Source: Nitrospirota bacterium
GTDB lineage: Bacteria; Nitrospirota; UBA9217
Assembly (NCBI GenBank): GCA_963741205.1
Contig: CAVUHW010000040.1
Coordinates: forward strand, 1 to 43,234
Length of the DNA stretch: 43,234 nt
Direction: 5' to 3'
Part shown: one piece after another, positions 25,579-34,898 of the stretch
Layout: every line of letters starts with the position of its first letter
Position numbering within the stretch: the stretch's first letter is position 1
Made by a program: the position numbers and the translations under genes
Notes under the pieces: generated by a model
What the model was told of the DNA's origin: nothing
Seen by the model: the letters and a program-made list of their open reading frames with translations, nothing else
The model's database searches: none

Positions 25579-26786
25579 CTATTTGTTGTCTTCATCCACC
25601 GCTTTTCTCAGCATGTCCAGGATGCCGGGGATGGCTGACGTCACGCGGTTCCAGTTTGGGATAAGCGGCGCGCCCAAGGGGTTTTCCATGAACTTTTCAG
25701 CCGCCAGGGCAATGGCCCGCGTGAACGCCTCCACGGCCTTGGCCTCTTCGTGACGGTCGAATATGAGGCCATTGATCGCCGCATCCGCTTCATATTTCAT
25801 AATGGTGTCCTCGGCGAACCTCAGGTAAGAGGCGGAAAGTGACTTGAACAGCCCGTTGGAAAAGACGACCCCTCGGAGGCCAGGGTCCTGAACACGGACT
25901 TGCAGATGTCCACCGTCATCTTCATCAGGCCTTTTTGCGGGTCATCGGCCGAGAGCGCCTGGTGTTTATGCTCGTAGGTAGCGGCGATGTCAACCTGGCA
26001 GACGCGGCGCGGAGAATAGTTCCGGTACACCTCGGCCAGGGAGCCGACCTCCAGACCCCAGTCCCATGGGATGCGGTTCACCCGCGCCAGGTCCGTGGTC
26101 ATGCAGAATTCACCCGCGAGCGCATACCGGAAGCTGTCGAGGAAAATGAGAAAGCGGTGCGGCCCGATGAGCTGCTGGAGCGAACGCACCAGCGGCGTCA
26201 CCATGAGCCGCGTCACACGTCCATGCATCCTGTCGGTCACCCTGCTGTAGAAGCCCTTGCAGAACACGTAATCGATATTAGGATTCACGACGGGGTAGCA
26301 GAGGCGGGCCAGCAGCTCCCGGTTGTAGCTGACGATGTCGCAGTCGTGAAGAGCGATGACATCAGCCTTAGCCGCGGCAAGCACATACCCGTAGGCGAGC
26401 CAGCAGGACCTGCCTTTCCCGTCCTGTCCGGGATCGAGGCCGTTTCTCTTGATGGTGTCATATATCTCGCGGACGCGTTTTCCCTCGTTATGAATGATCT
26501 TGACTTCGTAAGGGATAGGTGCCATGAACTGCCGTGCTTTTACGAATTCCTTGTCCGAGGCCCTGCCCAGAACAAGGACGATCTGTCCGAGATAGTCGAC
26601 TTTGGTAAGCTCGCTGACTATCCCCGGCATTGCCCTGCCCTCGAATTCCGAGTAAAGCGCAGGAAGAACGAGCGCGATCGGCCGTATGCGTGAATGCTCC
26701 CTCAACTCTGTCTCAAGGCGTTCAAGCGACGGTTGGCCGAGTTTGTGGATCGTGGTTATGATGCCCGTCTGGTGAAAGTCCGACAT
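25579..26786 (-). CDS. gpgS: Glucosyl-3-phosphoglycerate synthase-like glycosyltransferase; frameshift at ~25865
   Basis: MSDFHQTGIITTIH, LPALYSE, GKGRSCW, LHDCDI, GRVTRL, YEHKHQ; C-terminus (IPNWNRV) in ORF 25579..25800; operon context. Confidence 0.8.
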
Positions 26787-26863
26787 GATGCCTCCCTGTT
26801 ATGGACAGTTCATAGCTGACAGTTGACGGCAACCGCCATGAGTTGTAAACCATGAGCCACAAG

Positions 26864-27539
26864 CTAAATATGTTCGATATCCCCTTTTTCCTCGTCCTTC
26901 TTTTCCGTCTCTTTCTCGATTATCTTTCGCGCGGCATCGATGCCGCCGACGCCGAAGGAAATTGACAATGCCAGGACGATGCCTCCGAAGATGATGGAGA
27001 ATGCGTTCACGACGATGTTTGGCGCAACCTGGAGCTGCTCCAGGGCCATGGCGACGAACAGGAGCGTCAGGAGAACGCGCACCGCCTCGGCTAGAAGCCT
27101 CGCGAACAGGTACCCCCGGTTCACCGCTGAAATAAGAACAGTCCTGCTGATGAAGCCCGTCACAATATACCCGATGACAAGGACCACAGCGGCGGTCAGC
27201 AACCTCGGAACGTACATGATGAAACGCGAAATGAGGCTGTCCATGGCCTGGATATTCAGCGCGCTAATTCCCGCCATCAATACTCCGATGATAAGGGACC
27301 AGAACACAAATGACGCCATGGCCACGGACGGCCTGTCCCAGAGGTCCCCTCTTCTCATGACCGAGGTAAATCCCATCCTGTCGCTCCAGCTGTCGAACTT
27401 GATTGCCTCGAAGCAACTTAACGACGACCAACCGCACGATTCGCGCCGCGGTGATTCCGACCAGGATAATGATAAGCATGGTCAGAATGTTCGGGCAGAA
27501 CCTCGCGAACCGGTAGTACACGTCCTTCAATTGTTCCAT
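26864..27539 (-). CDS. Membrane protein with MscS/CmpX-like conserved TM helices; frameshifted
   Basis: PNILTMLIIILVG, YVPRLLTAAVVLVIG, ALEQLQVA, ALSISFGVGG. Confidence 0.75.
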
Positions 27540-27624
27540 GAGTACAGCTGGCGAATGCCTCCATATTGCACCTCCCCTAATCCGGACAGGCCGGAATTGC
27601 AAATCGAATTGGAATTTGGAAACT

Positions 27625-28898
27625 TTATAACAATAAATATTTCCAATTGTTGACCAGGTGACCCTTGCCCTCCTCGAATTCCAGGCAGAGCTTCTCGATC
27701 TCCGCCTCGGCTTCAGCCTGACCCTTGTCCCGTACCTCCATGACAAACGAAGCCGTTTTCCCGAGGTAGAGCGGCGTCAGGGACCCGAGCAGGTGTTCAC
27801 GAGGCAGCTTCCTCGCATGATACGCAAGGGCGTAATCGTACACAACGCGGGTCCACAGTTTGAGCGGGAACCTGAATTCTTCATCGGCACGGGCGGCCAG
27901 GGCCTCAAGCTCGTGAAAATCGCCGCTCCCCAGTACGGTTATCCAAACCTCTTTCAGGTTCTTGAGCCCCGCCCTGAATAGGCGAAGCATCCTGCCGGCG
28001 TCCACCGAGACCTGCTCAAGCCCTACTTCGTATTGAAACCCGAATCCCGGCACCGGCTCCGAACCTGCGTACTGTTCTTCCACACTTTTTCGTAGGTCTC
28101 CATAAGGCCGAACGCCGAGCCCACAACCTGGTACAGCATGGCGGACAGGTCCGCTCCCGGGTCCTTGGGGTCGTGGATCTTCGCGCCGAGAAAGGCCTGG
28201 GCCACCTTGAAATCGTTCGCGATCGCCTCCGTCGTCATCCAGATATCGATGCCGTACCGGGCGACATCGGTATTGCCAGACGTCCTTGGCGAGAAAATGT
28301 TCGCCAGCCTGCCGGAAAAACCGAAATCCCCGCCTATCGGCTGCCGGACCCGCTTGCCGTACAAGGCACGGGTAAGAGGATAGACAATGCTGTTCGTGAT
28401 CGTGCCGTCATACTTGTGACGGTGGTACAGAGGGGTAACGTAATCCACTTCCGCTTCGAGGACCGGCTTTACCAGAAGTTCCACCCACTCGGGTGTGATA
28501 CTCCGGAGGTCGGAGTCCACGACCGCGCAGGCCTTCACCTGGAGCGCCTCGGCAATCTCAAAGATCGTGCGGAATGCGCTGCCCTTGCCCGGCAAGCCAT
28601 GATAGGGGATTGCCATCTTAAAGGCCGGCTCCACCCGATGGTGGAGCAGGATAGAACCGAAGTTCTCGATAACGGTGTTCTGCACGACGTCGATGGTCCC
28701 ATCGGTTGACCCACCGTCGGAATCGACAAGCACCGCCTTACGGTCGGGAAAGTATTTTGCGAGGCCCGCTTGCACCGCGCGCACAACGTGACCGATGGTC
28801 CGGGCGTTGTTGTAGCTCGGGATGCCGACGAGGATGTCGGCGGCACCGACCTGCTCAACAAATGCTCGGACCTCCTGACGTTGAACGATTCTTTTCAT
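27625..28898 (-). CDS. Glucosylglycerate synthase (Ggs)-like GT2 glycosyltransferase; frameshifted
   Basis: VGIPSYNNARTI, DGGSTDGT, GKGSA, VDSDLRSI, RQPIGGDF, YGIDIWMT, HDPKDP; C-terminal part in 27625..28083. Confidence 0.8.
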
Positions 28899-29134
28899 TG
28901 GCTCTCATTCGTATAATTAAACTATAGTTCATTGGCTGAATGTTACGATACCGCTTGCCGTGCTCATCCTTCGACAAGAATGATCTGAATATCCATGACG
29001 TTCGTTCCTGTCGGGCCGGTCTTTAAAAGAGAACGAGATCCGCTGACGGCATCGAACTTCTCAAACGACGTATATGAATCGTTGTTGGCCAGATAATCCC
29101 CGGCAGAGAGGCTATGGTCTGCAGCCAGGCGCAC

Positions 29135-29361
29135 CCTTCTGAGATCCTGTCCCCCAGCAGGTCCTCGGTTGCCAATGCCATTCGCGCCGTTGCCTTGCCG
29201 GCGCCCAGCACGAGGATGCGCCTGAATACCCCGAGGTCGAAGGTCCCTCCGGCGGTATGCAGTGTGCCGCCCTCAATCCGCATTGCCTTTCGTACCGCCG
29301 TGTAGGGATCAACAGCACCAATTGCCGCGCGATAGATGTCAAACAGAGCGGTACCGTTCAT
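29135..29361 (-). pseudogene. N-terminal fragment of class II glycerate kinase (GckA/TtuD-like)
   Basis: IYRAAIGAVDP...LVLGAGKATARMA...LGDRISEG, after which similarity is lost abruptly. Confidence 0.75.
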
Positions 29362-29398
29362 ATCGCTATCCTCTTGTTTATTAGGCTGCACGGCAGGA

Positions 29399-30191
29399 TC
29401 ACCCGAGCAGCAGCATCACTGCTTCATTCCAGCCCGCAGGGCCGATGCCGTTTGTCAGGTACAGGCCTGGAATATTTATCCTGGGATCATGGGTTCCGTC
29501 ATTCCTGCGGATGAGAACCGGTTTGTCCACTGCAAGAAGAAACGGCAGGTCGTTGAGGCTATCCCCGAGGCCCACCAGGGTGACAGTGCCGTGAGCGCGC
29601 TCGTAGAGTCCCCTCAGCACGTTCACGGCTTTCCCCTTATGATGGTTGCCCATGATGTGGAATATTCTCCCCTGGGTCCATCTGAGGCCCTCCGCTTCGA
29701 TAGCCTGGAGGAACCTGTCATCCGTAGCCTTGGCAAAAACAAATGGCTCGTCATACTCCCGCATGGTCGAGAGATGCCTCGTACTTGGGAAGGCCTGTCA
29801 GCGCCATGATCTCCCGGGTGTTCATATCGCCGAAGCCGCGCACCGGGATTTTGAGACGATCTCTCAGTGAAATGAAACGCTTTCGGATCTCGCTGTATCC
29901 AATGCCGAGCGAAATCACCAGATAGCCATTTCTCTTTTCGCCGTCTATTGGAAACGGGAAATACCCTTCCGGGATGTAAATGCCACCTCCGTTTTCCGCG
30001 ATGAAGGGATGATGATTCCCGAGGCGCGTCCGGTGCACTTCCAGCTCCGCGCGGGTCTTGCTGGAGCAGAGTATCAGCGGAATATCAGACTGCTCTATTA
30101 GTTCCAGAGCCGGCTTCGCCTCTGCATAAGAATAGTTTCGCTCATGAAGGAGCGAGCCGTCCAGGTCTGTGATAATAATTGTCTTGCTCAT
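29399..30191 (-). CDS. HAD-IIB mannosyl/glucosyl-3-phosphoglycerate phosphatase (MpgP/GpgP); frameshift at ~29770
   Basis: TDLDGSLL, CSSKTRAE, FIAENGG, REYDEPF, GLGDSLND. Confidence 0.88.
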
Positions 30192-30357
30192 TGTCCGCCC
30201 ACCCGCGGCCCATAGTAAACGATGACCACCGAGCACAATATAAATTCAATCCATATTGCAGCCATGGAAGTTCCTATGATTTATCGTCTTGTTGCGCTCC
30301 TCTTTGCCATCAACTTGCTCTAATTGTTCATGTAACTTATAATCACGCCGCTGTTGA

Positions 30358-31560
30358 TCATTTGCTCTTGTTCACTGCCATTACATAGCGCATGGCAAGC
30401 GGCGCAAGCAGGGTCGTGAGCGCAACTACGAAGACGACCACGGCATAGGCTGCGTCGTCGAATATCTTGCTCCGCTTTCCCACCTCGGCAAAAATCAGGC
30501 CGACCTCACCCCGGGGCACCATAGCGACGCCCGTGGACAGCTTTTCCCGAAAGCCGCCCGGCGCCCATACGCCGCTGGCCATTTTGCTCAACACCGCAAC
30601 GACGGTAAGAACTCCTGCATAACCCCAGAAGGCCCCAGAGTGCATGTCGATCACCCGCAGGTTGATGGAAACGCCGACCATCACAAAGAATACGGGAACG
30701 AATAGGTCGATGATGGGCGTAATGCTCTCTTCGATCTTTTCTGCAAGCTGATGACTGTAATGCTCGATGCTTGCGCCCAAGGGAAGGAAGAACCGGCGCG
30801 CAAGAGCGATCCCCGCCGCAAAGGACCCGAGGATCGCCGGAGCGCCCACGCTGCGGGAAATGACTGCCAGGCCGAGGATCAGGGATATGATAATAGTGGG
30901 GACCATGCCCTTCGTTCTGCCGGAGGATGCCGCCTTCGCCATCAGCGGAACGAACAGCTTGGCCAGCACCGGTGCAAGGAGCAGGAACGCCGATATGAAC
31001 ACCAGGATCCTTGCAGTTGCCGCGACGCTCACGGTCCCCTTGACGGCAAAATCGTAGAGTACGGCAAGGACGACTACGCCGATCACGTCGTCCAGGACAG
31101 CGGCGCCGAGGACGATCCGCGCCATTCGGCTAAGGTGTTGGTTCAGGTCCTTCAGCACACGCACGGTGATCCCTATGCTCGTTGCTACGATCGTGCCTCC
31201 CACGAAGAGCGAGGGGATCACGGCCATTCCGAAAAAGCGATAGGACACCCAGAACCCGAGGACACCCGGGACTACAACGCCGGTGACCGCAACCAGTGTG
31301 GACCTCACGCCTTCTTTTACGAGCTGACCCACGTCTGTTTCCAGACCCACTTCGAAGAGCAGCAGCAGGATGCCAATCTCCGCGATAAGTTGGAATGTTG
31401 GTTCCGGTGCTATGAACCGCAAAACGCTCGGCCCTATGATCAGACCGGCGACAACCTCCCCAAGCACTGAAGGGATGTTCAGCCTGCTGAATACTTCGGC
31501 AAATAACTTCGCCGCGAGCAGAATAACAAGCAGTTTGAGAAAAAATTCCGAAACTTCCAC
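30358..31560 (-). CDS. CPA2-family cation:proton antiporter
   Basis: LLFEVGLETD, ATSIGITVRVL, AAVLDDVIG, MVPRGEVGLIFA; probable GTG start at 31560 after GGAGAGG. Confidence 0.92.
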   Translation of the reverse strand: MEVSEFFLKLLVILLAAKLFAEVFSRLNIPSVLGEVVAGLIIGPSVLRFIAPEPTFQLIAEIGILLLLFEVGLETDVGQLVKEGVRSTLVAVTGVVVPGVLGFWVSYRFFGMAVIPSLFVGGTIVATSIGITVRVLKDLNQHLSRMARIVLGAAVLDDVIGVVVLAVLYDFAVKGTVSVAATARILVFISAFLLLAPVLAKLFVPLMAKAASSGRTKGMVPTIIISLILGLAVISRSVGAPAILGSFAAGIALARRFFLPLGASIEHYSHQLAEKIEESITPIIDLFVPVFFVMVGVSINLRVIDMHSGAFWGYAGVLTVVAVLSKMASGVWAPGGFREKLSTGVAMVPRGEVGLIFAEVGKRSKIFDDAAYAVVVFVVALTTLLAPLAMRYVMAVNKSK

Positions 31561-31584
31561 TATTGAGCCTCTCCCTGATGAAAT

Positions 31585-31632
31585 AAAAAAGGCCGGCGCA
31601 AGCATCAATGGAAAAATGCTCTTTGCCAGCCC
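31585..31632 (-). terminator. Intrinsic terminator inside the 5' leader of the antiporter operon
   Basis: Minus strand GGCUGGC...GAGCAU-loop-AUGCUU...GCCGGCC followed by U6. Confidence 0.7.
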
Positions 31633-31708
31633 TCTTTCCCGGCGTACTCTGTTCATCCTGTAGAATGTACTTCCGGGCGCGTCAGTCCGCCATGCATCGT
31701 TAGTATTT

Positions 31709-31749
31709 ATTTGTGTTCTAATTATATTAGCTAAAAGGCATTATGTCAA
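31709..31749 (-). promoter_or_regulatory. Consensus sigma70 promoter overlapped by an operator-like site (ATTTG-TGTT-CTAAT, 31709-31722)
   Basis: Minus strand TTGACA-N17-TATAAT, a perfect consensus. Confidence 0.8.
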
Positions 31750-31944
31750 TTTATACCCTCTTATTAAAAGCAGTGAGCCGCTCGCCCATCCAACAACTAC
31801 ACCTATTCCAGGCAATCTTCGCGCCAGAGACATGTTGTCTGAATACATCCCACCACATTCGTTGAAAAGCAATCGGTTGCTCCTTGCATTTCTCATTTCG
31901 CGGGGTATACTGATAGTATCTCAACTGTCTTAAGGAGGTATCTC

Positions 31945-32556
31945 ATGAACTCTGCAGCCGCTTCATCCTCGTCCCGTCGTTTCCTCATCATGGTGCTGCA
32001 TTTCATTGCAGCGACCGCAACGGTTGCCGTGCTGACGACGTCAGCCATCGGCGCCCCCAAAAAAGGGGGAGGCCCCATGTTCACTAAAGATGGGGAACTG
32101 GTCATGCCCAAGAATTTCCACCTCTGGGTCTTTGTCGGAGCACCGGTCACGCCTAACGACATGAACAACGGCAAGGCGCCATTCCCCGAATTCCACGATG
32201 TCTACATCGACCCGGCCAGTTTCGCCGCATACAACAAGACCGGCAAATTCCCCGACGGCACTATTCTCATCAAGGAGCTTGCATCAGTCGGCGCAAAAAG
32301 CGCCGCCAGCGGAAACGGTTATTTCCCGGGCGAATTCATCGAGGTGGAGGCAGTAGTAAAAGACTCGAAGAGATTTGCGAAGGAACCGGGCAACTGGGCC
32401 TATTTCAAATTCATGGGGGCAGACGGCAAGCCCCTGGACAAGGCCAAGATGCAGCCGACGGAGAACTGCAACGGGTGTCACGAAAAGAACGCTGCGGAGG
32501 ATTGGGTTTTCACCCAATTCTATCCCGTCCTGCGGGCGGCGAAAGCAGCCAAGTAA
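31945..32556 (+). CDS. cytL: Cytochrome P460 (Nitrosomonas CytL-like)
   Basis: VTPNDMNNGKAPF, FPDGTILIKEL (cross-link Lys), SGNGYF, EAVVKD..RF..EPGNWAYF, CNGCH, VFTQFYPVLRAAK. Confidence 0.85.
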   Translation: MNSAAASSSSRRFLIMVLHFIAATATVAVLTTSAIGAPKKGGGPMFTKDGELVMPKNFHLWVFVGAPVTPNDMNNGKAPFPEFHDVYIDPASFAAYNKTGKFPDGTILIKELASVGAKSAASGNGYFPGEFIEVEAVVKDSKRFAKEPGNWAYFKFMGADGKPLDKAKMQPTENCNGCHEKNAAEDWVFTQFYPVLRAAKAAK

Positions 32557-32820
32557 CCTGAAGTAACATCGCATACGTTAGCATTTTAAGAGGCATTCTC
32601 CATCTGTGCAGCTCGTTCGGGAAACCTTCGAAACATCGTATATGCGTTCCCCGAACGGCTGCACCGATTTTATTTCCTGCGAACATCTTCCGCACAACTT
32701 GTCAAAACATGCTAATCCCTGTTCCGTGTTCGTCGTCGGGGCGTAAGGTCGCCTCCATCTTGTCTCTCAACTCACTGTCCACCAGCATATGTTCACCTCC
32801 TCAAAATTAACCGCTCGGAG

Positions 32821-32994
32821 AAGTACACGCACGCGGCGATCGCGACGGCCGAACTGGCGGTGGCGAATGCGATGGACGGGGCCGGGAAGCGGGTGTCCGA
32901 ACTGATCATCCCGCACTGCACGTACACAGACCCTGAGGTGGCCCAGGCCGGAGTCACGCCCCAGGAAGCGGAGCGGACGTCCCCGGCCGCATAG
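32821..32994 (+). pseudogene. Internal fragment of a mercuric-reductase-like pyridine nucleotide-disulfide oxidoreductase
   Basis: KYTHAA...AVANA...IIPHCTYTDPEVAQAG, with no start context. Confidence 0.7.
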
Positions 32995-33016
32995 ACCGCC
33001 GGGTTGGCCGTTCGGA

Positions 33017-34346: not shown

Positions 34347-34898
34347 TTACTTCAAGGTTGGATATCCCTGAATATAGACCCAATCTGTCTTCTTAGCGGG
34401 TACGTGGCAACCTATGCAGTCTTTTCTAAAGTCGGTGGACACGTTTTTTTGAGGGTCTTTAGCTTGAAACAGTGCCCAGCCCCAGCCGTCGCCCCAGTTA
34501 GGATTGTTCTTGAAGCGACCTTTCTGGTCTTTGATCATCACAAACCAGCTGACAATATCCCCAGCCCAGTAAGCCTTGCCTGTGGTCATTTCTTCGGCGT
34601 TGATTTTGCGAATTTCTTTGATCAAAACCGCACCGTCTGGGAATTGCCCGGCTTTCTTATAACTCTCAACCGATTCGGGCTGGGTGAACACGTCGTGAAA
34701 ACCGCGACCAGGCGCCTTTTCCATAGGAACCGCCCAGGCTCCCAGATAAGCCCACCTGGCTCGATAATCCTCGGGAAGGCTGATCCTGCCCTGATCATCG
34801 ACGTAAGGGGAAAAGGTCTTTGCTTTCTCTTGGGCGTGCAAACCACTGACTAAAAGGACCCCAACAAGAAAAATGGCAATTTTCCATGTAACCCTCAT
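34347..34898 (-). CDS. Second cytochrome P460-family protein (different subtype)
   Basis: Signal peptide; GFHDVF, FPDGAVLIKE, WFVMIKD, WGDGWGWALF, CIGCH, YIQGYPTL. Confidence 0.85.
   Translation of the reverse strand: MRVTWKIAIFLVGVLLVSGLHAQEKAKTFSPYVDDQGRISLPEDYRARWAYLGAWAVPMEKAPGRGFHDVFTQPESVESYKKAGQFPDGAVLIKEIRKINAEEMTTGKAYWAGDIVSWFVMIKDQKGRFKNNPNWGDGWGWALFQAKDPQKNVSTDFRKDCIGCHVPAKKTDWVYIQGYPTLK

Follow-up and report, generated by a model that had tools for sequence, protein, structure and literature searches.

The window, by which the whole stretch of 43,234 nucleotides is meant throughout, carries on its minus strand the gene for a CPA2-type cation:proton antiporter of 400 amino acids (30358..31560, GTG start), which matches the Pfam family Na_H_Exchanger with an E-value of 1.9e-64; in NCBIfam it comes closest to the CPA2 family TIGR00932, without reaching the cut-off of that family. 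The start codon is backed by orthologues, in which ATG, TTG or GTG occupies the same aligned position. Further minus-strand genes follow downstream (25821..30236), annotated by Pfam and NCBIfam matches, the latter sub-threshold: a mannosyl-3-phosphoglycerate-phosphatase (MpgP)-family HAD protein (29399-30236), split into two frames at 29751-30236 and 29399-29764; a DUF4147 glycerate-kinase-like fragment (29023-29391) of 122 amino acids, compared to about 460 in its relatives; a GT2 gene (27625-28898), likewise split (28023-28898 and 27625-28083); a small MscS-like membrane protein (26864-27376); and a glucosyl-3-phosphoglycerate-synthase (GpgS)-like protein (25821-26786) of 321 amino acids, compared to 402 in locus L221. 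Judging only by strand and spacing, these genes would be co-transcribed with the antiporter; the label "glucosylglycerate" operon, given to them in an earlier note on this DNA, is reasonable, although it rests on the sub-threshold NCBIfam matches. The split and shortened solute genes may be pseudogenes or assembly frameshifts, and may reflect errors of the draft genome, which is 84% complete. Two genes of the cytochrome P460 family lie near each other at 31945-32556 (plus strand) and 34347-34898 (minus strand), the first of them divergent from the antiporter promoter. The only match in the window that reaches an Rfam gathering score is a c-di-GMP-I riboswitch (RF01051; 39984-40063, minus strand; 54.2 bits compared to a gathering score of 35).

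Upstream of the antiporter, a sigma-70 promoter on the minus strand agrees with the consensus at 12 of 12 positions, as the earlier note had read it, with the -35 hexamer TTGACA at 31744..31749, a spacer of 17 nucleotides, and the -10 hexamer TATAAT at 31721..31726. This promoter (31749-31721) is the sole such site within 30000-33000, a region with four promoter-like sites as against 2.2 +/- 1.7 in shuffled sequences. Transcription would start at about 31714, and about 154 nucleotides of leader lie between the promoter and the GTG start at 31560. The 161-nucleotide leader folds at -51.5 kcal/mol (z = -2.83; 3 of 200 shuffled sequences fold equally well), and its minimum-energy structure contains both a hairpin and a terminator.

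A covariance model, R1, delimits a conserved motif within this leader at 31581..31696 on the minus strand (112.5 bits, E 4.6e-37). Near its 5' end, at motif positions 7-19, stands a near-invariant block, GCGGACUGACGCG (31678..31690), followed by a variable hairpin (31638..31677) whose conserved base, CCYG/CRGG, is identified by covariation; in the window this hairpin reads CCCGG(31677-31673)-AA-GUAC...GUAC-G-CCGGG(31642-31638), exactly as had been claimed. A conserved purine linker, AAAGAG (consensus ARAGNR; 31632..31637), leads to an intrinsic terminator (31585..31631), identified by folding and pair counts, with the arms GGCUGGC (31631-31625) and GCCGGCC (31597-31591) and a tract of six U (31590-31585); this terminator, too, had been proposed in the earlier note and is borne out. 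Between the U-tract and the GTG start lie 24 nucleotides, in which inspection of the sequence finds a ribosome-binding site, AGGGAGAGG (31568..31576). The window terminator was missed by a simple terminator scan that allows loops of 3-8 nucleotides, a limit too narrow for the terminator's loop and inner stem. A leader peptide, in the form of the mini-ORF ATG-GCG-GAC-TGA in the window leader, was considered and rejected; the mini-ORF is not conserved in other copies of the motif.

Orthologues of the antiporter were found in 14 of 41 related genomes, and the leader is common to nine of the 14 upstream regions (the window included), decayed in one and absent from four. In the decayed leader (locus L009, genome G019) GCGGA..GACGC and the GGCUGG terminator survive, whereas hairpin and ARAG linker have gone; an intact copy of the motif lies 5.7 kb away in this genome, before a gene for a 141-amino-acid protein and a second antiporter. 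In the alignment of the nine leaders, 98.2% of the hairpin and terminator cells are paired, compared to 36-45% when the partners are slid. The model R1, built from these nine orthologous leaders, finds one true copy in the window's own genome and, at E<=1e-6, 40 matches in 31 of the 64 genomes of the window's class, which represent a single order and family in the searched collection; up to three copies occur per genome, each before a different gene. Strong R1 matches also occur in four of six genomes of a second family of the phylum (f2), and there is one among the 11 genomes of a third (f8) in the phylum sample. A gapped pattern scan of metagenome contigs yielded 98 loci, of which 93 pass R1 at E<=1e-6. 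The total comes to 138 motif instances with 110 distinct sequences; since 93 of the 138 come from a pattern with fixed conserved blocks, this selection accounts for part of the invariance of these blocks. In the copies that R1 found in genomes, the same blocks recur, with five variant sequences only.

A promoter that matches at least 10 of the 12 consensus positions lies within 80 nucleotides upstream of the motif at 51 of 107 homologous loci; the figure for shuffled controls is 3 of 107. At the homologous loci the motif begins a median of 27 nucleotides after the end of the -10 hexamer, and therefore about 20 nucleotides into the transcript. Some copies have a -10-like hexamer immediately next to the motif, but these were discounted in favor of better promoters 13-48 nucleotides upstream.

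Several groups of candidate copies were rejected. The 120 loci in named genomes that match the 15-mer GCGGACKGACGCGCC are chance matches, mostly in high-GC genomes, and none of them has the rest of the motif; four of them, the Streptomyces loci L020, L033, L037 and L093, share a longer sequence, GCGGACTGACGCGCCGTC.GTCCGCC ... TATCTTCCGGGCCGAGAGCCTTCGAAGGGACCAATCCGGTGAACAAGAAG, which belongs to a conserved leader or promoter region, unrelated to the motif, ahead of a gene that starts GTGAACAAGAAG. Weak R1 matches (E 1e-3 to 1e-8) turned out on inspection to be mostly ordinary terminators at gene ends, and a locus upstream of a DUF1646 gene (L185) is the 3' end of a P-II-type gene with a terminator. 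Two loci that score 26-28 bits, L182 (genome G077) and L191 (genome G154), are possible divergent relatives and are not counted as members. The former, which precedes an MpgP/glycerate-kinase operon, comes with a TTGACA/TATAAT promoter of its own and combines GCGGACGG with a longer branched hairpin and AACGAA-GGCCGGC; the latter adjoins, on the upstream side, the gene for an Mrp antiporter subunit.

The consensus of the motif reads u-GCGGACKGACGCG-[CCYG ... variable hairpin ... CRGG]-ARAGNR-GGCYRG ... terminator ... CCUUUUUU, and about 25 nucleotides flanking the hairpin (GCGGACKGACGCG and ARAGNR-GGC) are almost invariant. Within the 5' block the same base occurs at each position in at least 107 of 109 sequences, most of which come from the pattern that fixes this block, with the exception of position 13 (U in 69, G in 40); in the linker, A60, A62 and G63 are the same in all 110 sequences. 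The hairpin between these strands ranges in length from 16 to 45 nucleotides, and its five basal pairs are formed in 110, 110, 110, 102 and 90 of the 110 sequences, with exchanges among CG, UG, UA, AU and GC. This anchor-based count, which is free of any alignment, agrees with the model-fitted covariation; in the metagenome-set alignment, itself model-fitted, 94.2% of the cells are paired compared to 31-48% with slid partners, and none of 500 shuffles reaches the observed covariation. Finally, when 60 diverse copies are aligned independently with MAFFT, RNAalifold recovers the hairpin, with compensation in five of nine pairs.

The terminator can be parsed in 104 of the 110 sequences; each of its pairs 1-6 forms in 98 or more of these 104, and the median energy of the terminator hairpin is -20.9 kcal/mol. 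The bases G66, G67 and C68 of its 5' arm are invariant in all 110 sequences, whereas the 3' partners of G66 and G67 vary (GC 90 / GU 14 and GC 96 / GU 8, respectively); with one side fixed while the other varies, the 5' arm must be constrained beyond its pairing in the terminator. The conservation of the leader had been set beforehand as a refutation test, and so had its novelty; the conservation check, as run, found 110 distinct sequences in which hairpin and terminator covary and the flanks are invariant. The leader at 31581-31696 is very probably a genuine conserved cis-regulatory RNA with a terminator.

As to novelty, the view that the leader belongs to no known riboswitch held up against Rfam 15, which gives no family for the window leader or for 20 homologous leaders, searched against all families, even at E<=10; a permissive scan of 31450-31850 with 4227 families at this threshold returned four chance-level hits and no riboswitch. 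A description of the motif was not found in full-text searches of papers, literal motif strings included, nor in passages of the 2024 "50 genomes" discovery paper (PMC11109978). We class the motif as a new, previously uncatalogued RNA class of the terminator-coupled riboswitch or attenuator kind. In its general layout, the leader has what characterizes a riboswitch with a terminator, a structured leader with covariation that passes directly into a GC-rich stem and a U-tract ahead of an ORF.

For 97 of the 110 distinct copies, a same-strand ORF could be called directly downstream of the motif, with median start offsets of 15-169 nucleotides depending on gene family. CPA2-type Na_H_Exchanger antiporters are the commonest first ORFs (30 of 97), often followed by a Na_Ca_ex gene; MpgP-family HAD proteins, followed by a glycerate 2-kinase-like or GT2 gene, account for 18, CitMHS/NhaD-like permeases for eight, and Ca/Na exchangers for six. 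CBS-domain proteins and beta-carbonic anhydrases come first at two loci each, with MscS next in line at one of the latter, and single loci have a DUF5752+TreT trehalose-synthase operon, a GpgS-like gene, a GT2 and a TPR protein; a few first ORFs are unknowns. To judge by their predicted functions, the motif-linked genes are a coherent salt, osmotic and pH-stress regulon. The idea that the leader is an RNA attenuator for an ion or osmotic signal is supported, in that the exchanger, solute, MscS and carbonic anhydrase genes would fit it well.

In second place among the first ORFs, at 22 of 97, comes a protein family of 141 amino acids that has no Pfam or NCBIfam match. The family is highly conserved, with an N-terminus MGFFGKLFGKKEELP... 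(for example L175:374-799, L219:665-1087 and 20 further loci); in the Atlas it is hypothetical, and its commonest taxa are Nitrospirota and Thermodesulfobacteriota. From these Atlas taxa, looked up for the protein of a metagenome locus, the phylum that carries the motif is probably Nitrospirota.

The gene neighborhoods also bear on whether the RNA acts on the genes behind it. The strong promoter and strong terminator, which bracket about 130 nucleotides, would suit an independent small RNA gene with a stable, trans-acting transcript of ~125 nucleotides and only incidental read-through; yet a same-strand ORF follows closely in 97 of the 97 loci with enough sequence, and these ORFs share one functional theme across many unrelated families, which is the signature of a cis-regulator. 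Such a small RNA gene is very improbable. It is more improbable still that the conserved structure is constitutive and regulates nothing, serving for example mRNA stability, with a terminator that is leaky: nothing specific speaks in favor of this possibility, and with about 25 nucleotides invariant across three families, in 110 sequences and before more than 10 unrelated downstream gene families, a specific recognition function is hard to avoid.

On balance, the leader is probably a riboswitch-type attenuator that is off by default and is turned on by direct sensing of Na+, monovalent cations, ionic strength or osmotic conditions; this assessment covers the whole statement, direct sensing included, and we infer the direct sensing, the ON logic, the antiterminator pairing and the ligand from the evidence assembled here. 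The strong, constitutive-looking promoter would start a transcript whose first ~110 nucleotides fold into three parts: the 5' block GCGGACKGACGCG, the variable hairpin with its conserved base, and the ARAGNR linker that runs straight into the terminator. By default, the terminator would form and transcription would stop about 24 nucleotides before the start codon. With the signal present, the invariant nucleotides round the hairpin base would form a compact pocket that holds the 5' arm of the terminator, most simply by pairing between CGGAC in the 5' block and GGCYG in the arm; with GGC(YRG) of the arm sequestered in the ligand-stabilised closed form, the polymerase would read into the antiporter and the compatible-solute genes. 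The CGGAC:GGCYG helix would set the invariant GACGCG and ARAGNR strands opposite each other in an internal loop between two helices, and an internal loop between two helices is the typical layout of a small ligand pocket. The RNA itself would be the sensor, most likely of Na+ or another monovalent cation, or of ionic strength.

The energetics of the leader are consistent with a default off state: all that the 5' block can contribute on top of the hairpin is about -5.8 kcal/mol, compared to the median of -20.9 kcal/mol for the terminator, and the terminator should therefore win. The 5' block has two ways of pairing, either within itself as a possible 3-bp hairpin, GCG/CGC with the loop GACUGA, or through CGGAC with the 5' arm of the terminator. 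Every copy can form the CGGAC:GGCYG helix, and of 40 leaders cut off after the arm, 16 adopt it in their minimum-energy structure (counted by inspection of the folds); the small hairpin is invariant in most copies and is broken without compensation in three (L172, L179 and L155). Rare natural variants give mixed and at best suggestive evidence for the alternative helix: G9A (L172) breaks the small hairpin and creates an A-U pair in the alternative helix, A11U (L171, L178) converts a bulge of that helix into a U.G pair, and C16G (L179) breaks both structures. With A at position 70, 33 of the 110 sequences cannot form C8-G70, one of the pairs proposed. Mutual information across 109 sequences supports no antiterminator pairing; as a caveat, covariation cannot test the nucleotides of the pocket and the antiterminator because they are invariant. 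A different pairing suggested in the earlier note, between an upstream GCCC and GGGC of the terminator, does exist in the window copy, but other copies conserve no more than three of the four pairs, the remaining one being C.A in 44 of 110 sequences, and covariation across the 110 sequences lends it no support as an antiterminator.

In the RNAalifold consensus the small 5' hairpin is favored, with the arm of the terminator left free, an arrangement that equally fits an OFF switch. It would suit a small-molecule riboswitch, for example a second c-di-AMP class or a sensor of an osmolyte or metabolite, possibly one in which the ligand stabilises the 5' and main hairpins and leaves the terminator free to form. 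Functions typically tied to c-di-AMP include CBS-domain proteins, cation/proton antiporters, MscS and osmolyte genes, and the gene set of the motif matches them; moreover, a diadenylate cyclase domain is found in 60 of the 64 class genomes and the known c-di-AMP riboswitch (ydaO, RF00379) in none of them. An OFF switch is nevertheless disfavored, because it has no stable ligand-free antiterminator (about -5.8 vs. about -20.9 kcal/mol) that could keep the genes on. In addition, the conserved core would be small for a dinucleotide pocket, and the joint switching-on of Na+-type exporters and solute synthesis fits rising salt better; a small-molecule ligand of this kind is decidedly unlikely. The ydaO riboswitch itself controls osmotic and ion-homeostasis genes through a terminator, and the motif resembles it in both respects; it differs in that ydaO, a pseudo-symmetric RNA with a model length of 134 positions, is far larger than the motif core and has no match in the window leader. 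In the passages of White et al. (PMC9337991) drawn on here, ydaO is an OFF switch.

Alternatively, attenuation could depend on a protein: a salt- or osmotic-responsive RNA-binding protein would bind the 5' block and linker and prevent or promote the terminator, with the RNA as its target only. The conserved part of the motif is indeed short, invariant in sequence and not covarying, as would be expected for a protein-binding site, and the apparent confinement of the motif to one phylum would fit a lineage-specific factor. No candidate factor has emerged, however; the sole recurrent unknown neighbor gene considered, that of the 141-amino-acid family, occurs in 13 of the 64 class genomes, as opposed to 31 for the motif, and is absent from all 14 that represent the window's genus, and on account of this phylogenetic profile the 141-amino-acid protein was rejected as a general trans-acting factor. 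The invariant terminator arm and the conserved hairpin base look instead like an overlap of aptamer and expression platform. Dependence on a protein is rather unlikely, without being negligible.

Among cation-responsive RNAs, the closest parallel to a directly sensing leader is the Na+-I riboswitch (DUF1646 motif). As it appears in the passages of White et al. (2022, PMC9337991) drawn on here, Na+-I is a short 5' leader with an intrinsic terminator, and its conserved nucleotides sit at the foot of P1 and in the P2 loop; the genes that it most commonly controls are kefB/napA-like antiporters, with osmoprotectant synthesis also represented, and in its proposed logic ligand binding blocks the terminator and turns expression on, P2 competing with the terminator. 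In terms of these passages, the motif described here is likewise a short 5'-leader RNA that ends in an intrinsic terminator and has a conserved base of the first hairpin; its commonest gene is likewise an Na_H_Exchanger antiporter, osmoprotectant-synthesis genes occur as well, and the ON logic proposed for it is the same. In contrast to Na+-I as portrayed there, the motif has no P2 with a conserved loop; its second hairpin is the terminator, with a loop that varies in sequence and length. The conserved sequence blocks also differ, and the covariance model of Na+-I (RF03071) does not match the window leader or 20 homologous loci even at E<=10. Over its cut-off of 40.5 bits, RF03071 was found in none of 151 genomes of the phylum, and it was detected in a Lactococcus lactis genome used as control. 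A further difference is that the motif does not precede DUF1646 genes in the class genomes (it was not found upstream of these genes at 17 loci).

In many class genomes, a P-II-type gene (with the ending ...IRIRTGE..G..AI*) and a strong terminator stand upstream of the DUF1646 gene (L316, L303, L306, L315, L322 and others); neither the motif nor the Na+-I riboswitch was found in these P-II/DUF1646 upstream regions. The DUF1646 gene of the window's genome, on contig C8, has an in-frame TAA.

The other alkali-cation-responsive leaders, Li+-I (nhaA-I, RF03057), the Na+-II variants and Li+-II (nhaA-II), likewise precede cation transporter genes, and the Na+-II variants use terminators and occupy a narrow lineage, as given in the passages of White et al. 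(2022, PMC9646797) drawn on here. The motif shares with all three its position before cation transporter genes, and with Na+-II the terminator and the narrow lineage; it differs from nhaA-I, as far as that RNA is described in these passages, in that P1 and P2 with a conserved loop are replaced by one hairpin flanked by invariant strands. Rfam matches to Li+-I/Na+-II (RF03057) and Li+-II were found neither in the window leader nor in 20 homologous loci at E<=10, and nhaA (PF06965) did not occur among 144 downstream ORFs scanned against Pfam.

Since the gene set of the motif parallels that of Na+-I, and Na+-I itself reaches its cut-off in none of the 151 phylum genomes, the best guess for the signal is Na+ or, put more guardedly, a monovalent cation or ionic strength. 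Alkali-cation-sensing RNAs are few, namely Na+-I, Na+-II, Li+-I and Li+-II in the passages of the two papers drawn on here (PMC9337991, PMC9646797). We tentatively raise the possibility that the motif is a third Na+ riboswitch class or the first K+ or ionic-strength class, confined to one phylum (probably Nitrospirota), in which a pocket of ~25 nucleotides at the base of a single hairpin co-activates ion export, the synthesis of compatible solutes (mannosyl/glucosyl-glycerate and trehalose) and the expression of unknown proteins.

The motif is a compact candidate with 110 natural sequence variants and a clear regulon, and salt sensing in bacteria outside the model phyla is, to our knowledge, largely uncharted. 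It links ion export with compatible-solute synthesis in an environmentally important and mostly uncultured lineage, and it provides a salt- or osmotic-stress context for uncharacterised proteins, such as the 141-amino-acid family, DUF5752 and the NhaD/CitMHS-like permeases; it would mark this regulon even if the sensor is a protein. If the tentative assignment is true, the new alkali-cation class would define the salt-stress regulon of the phylum.
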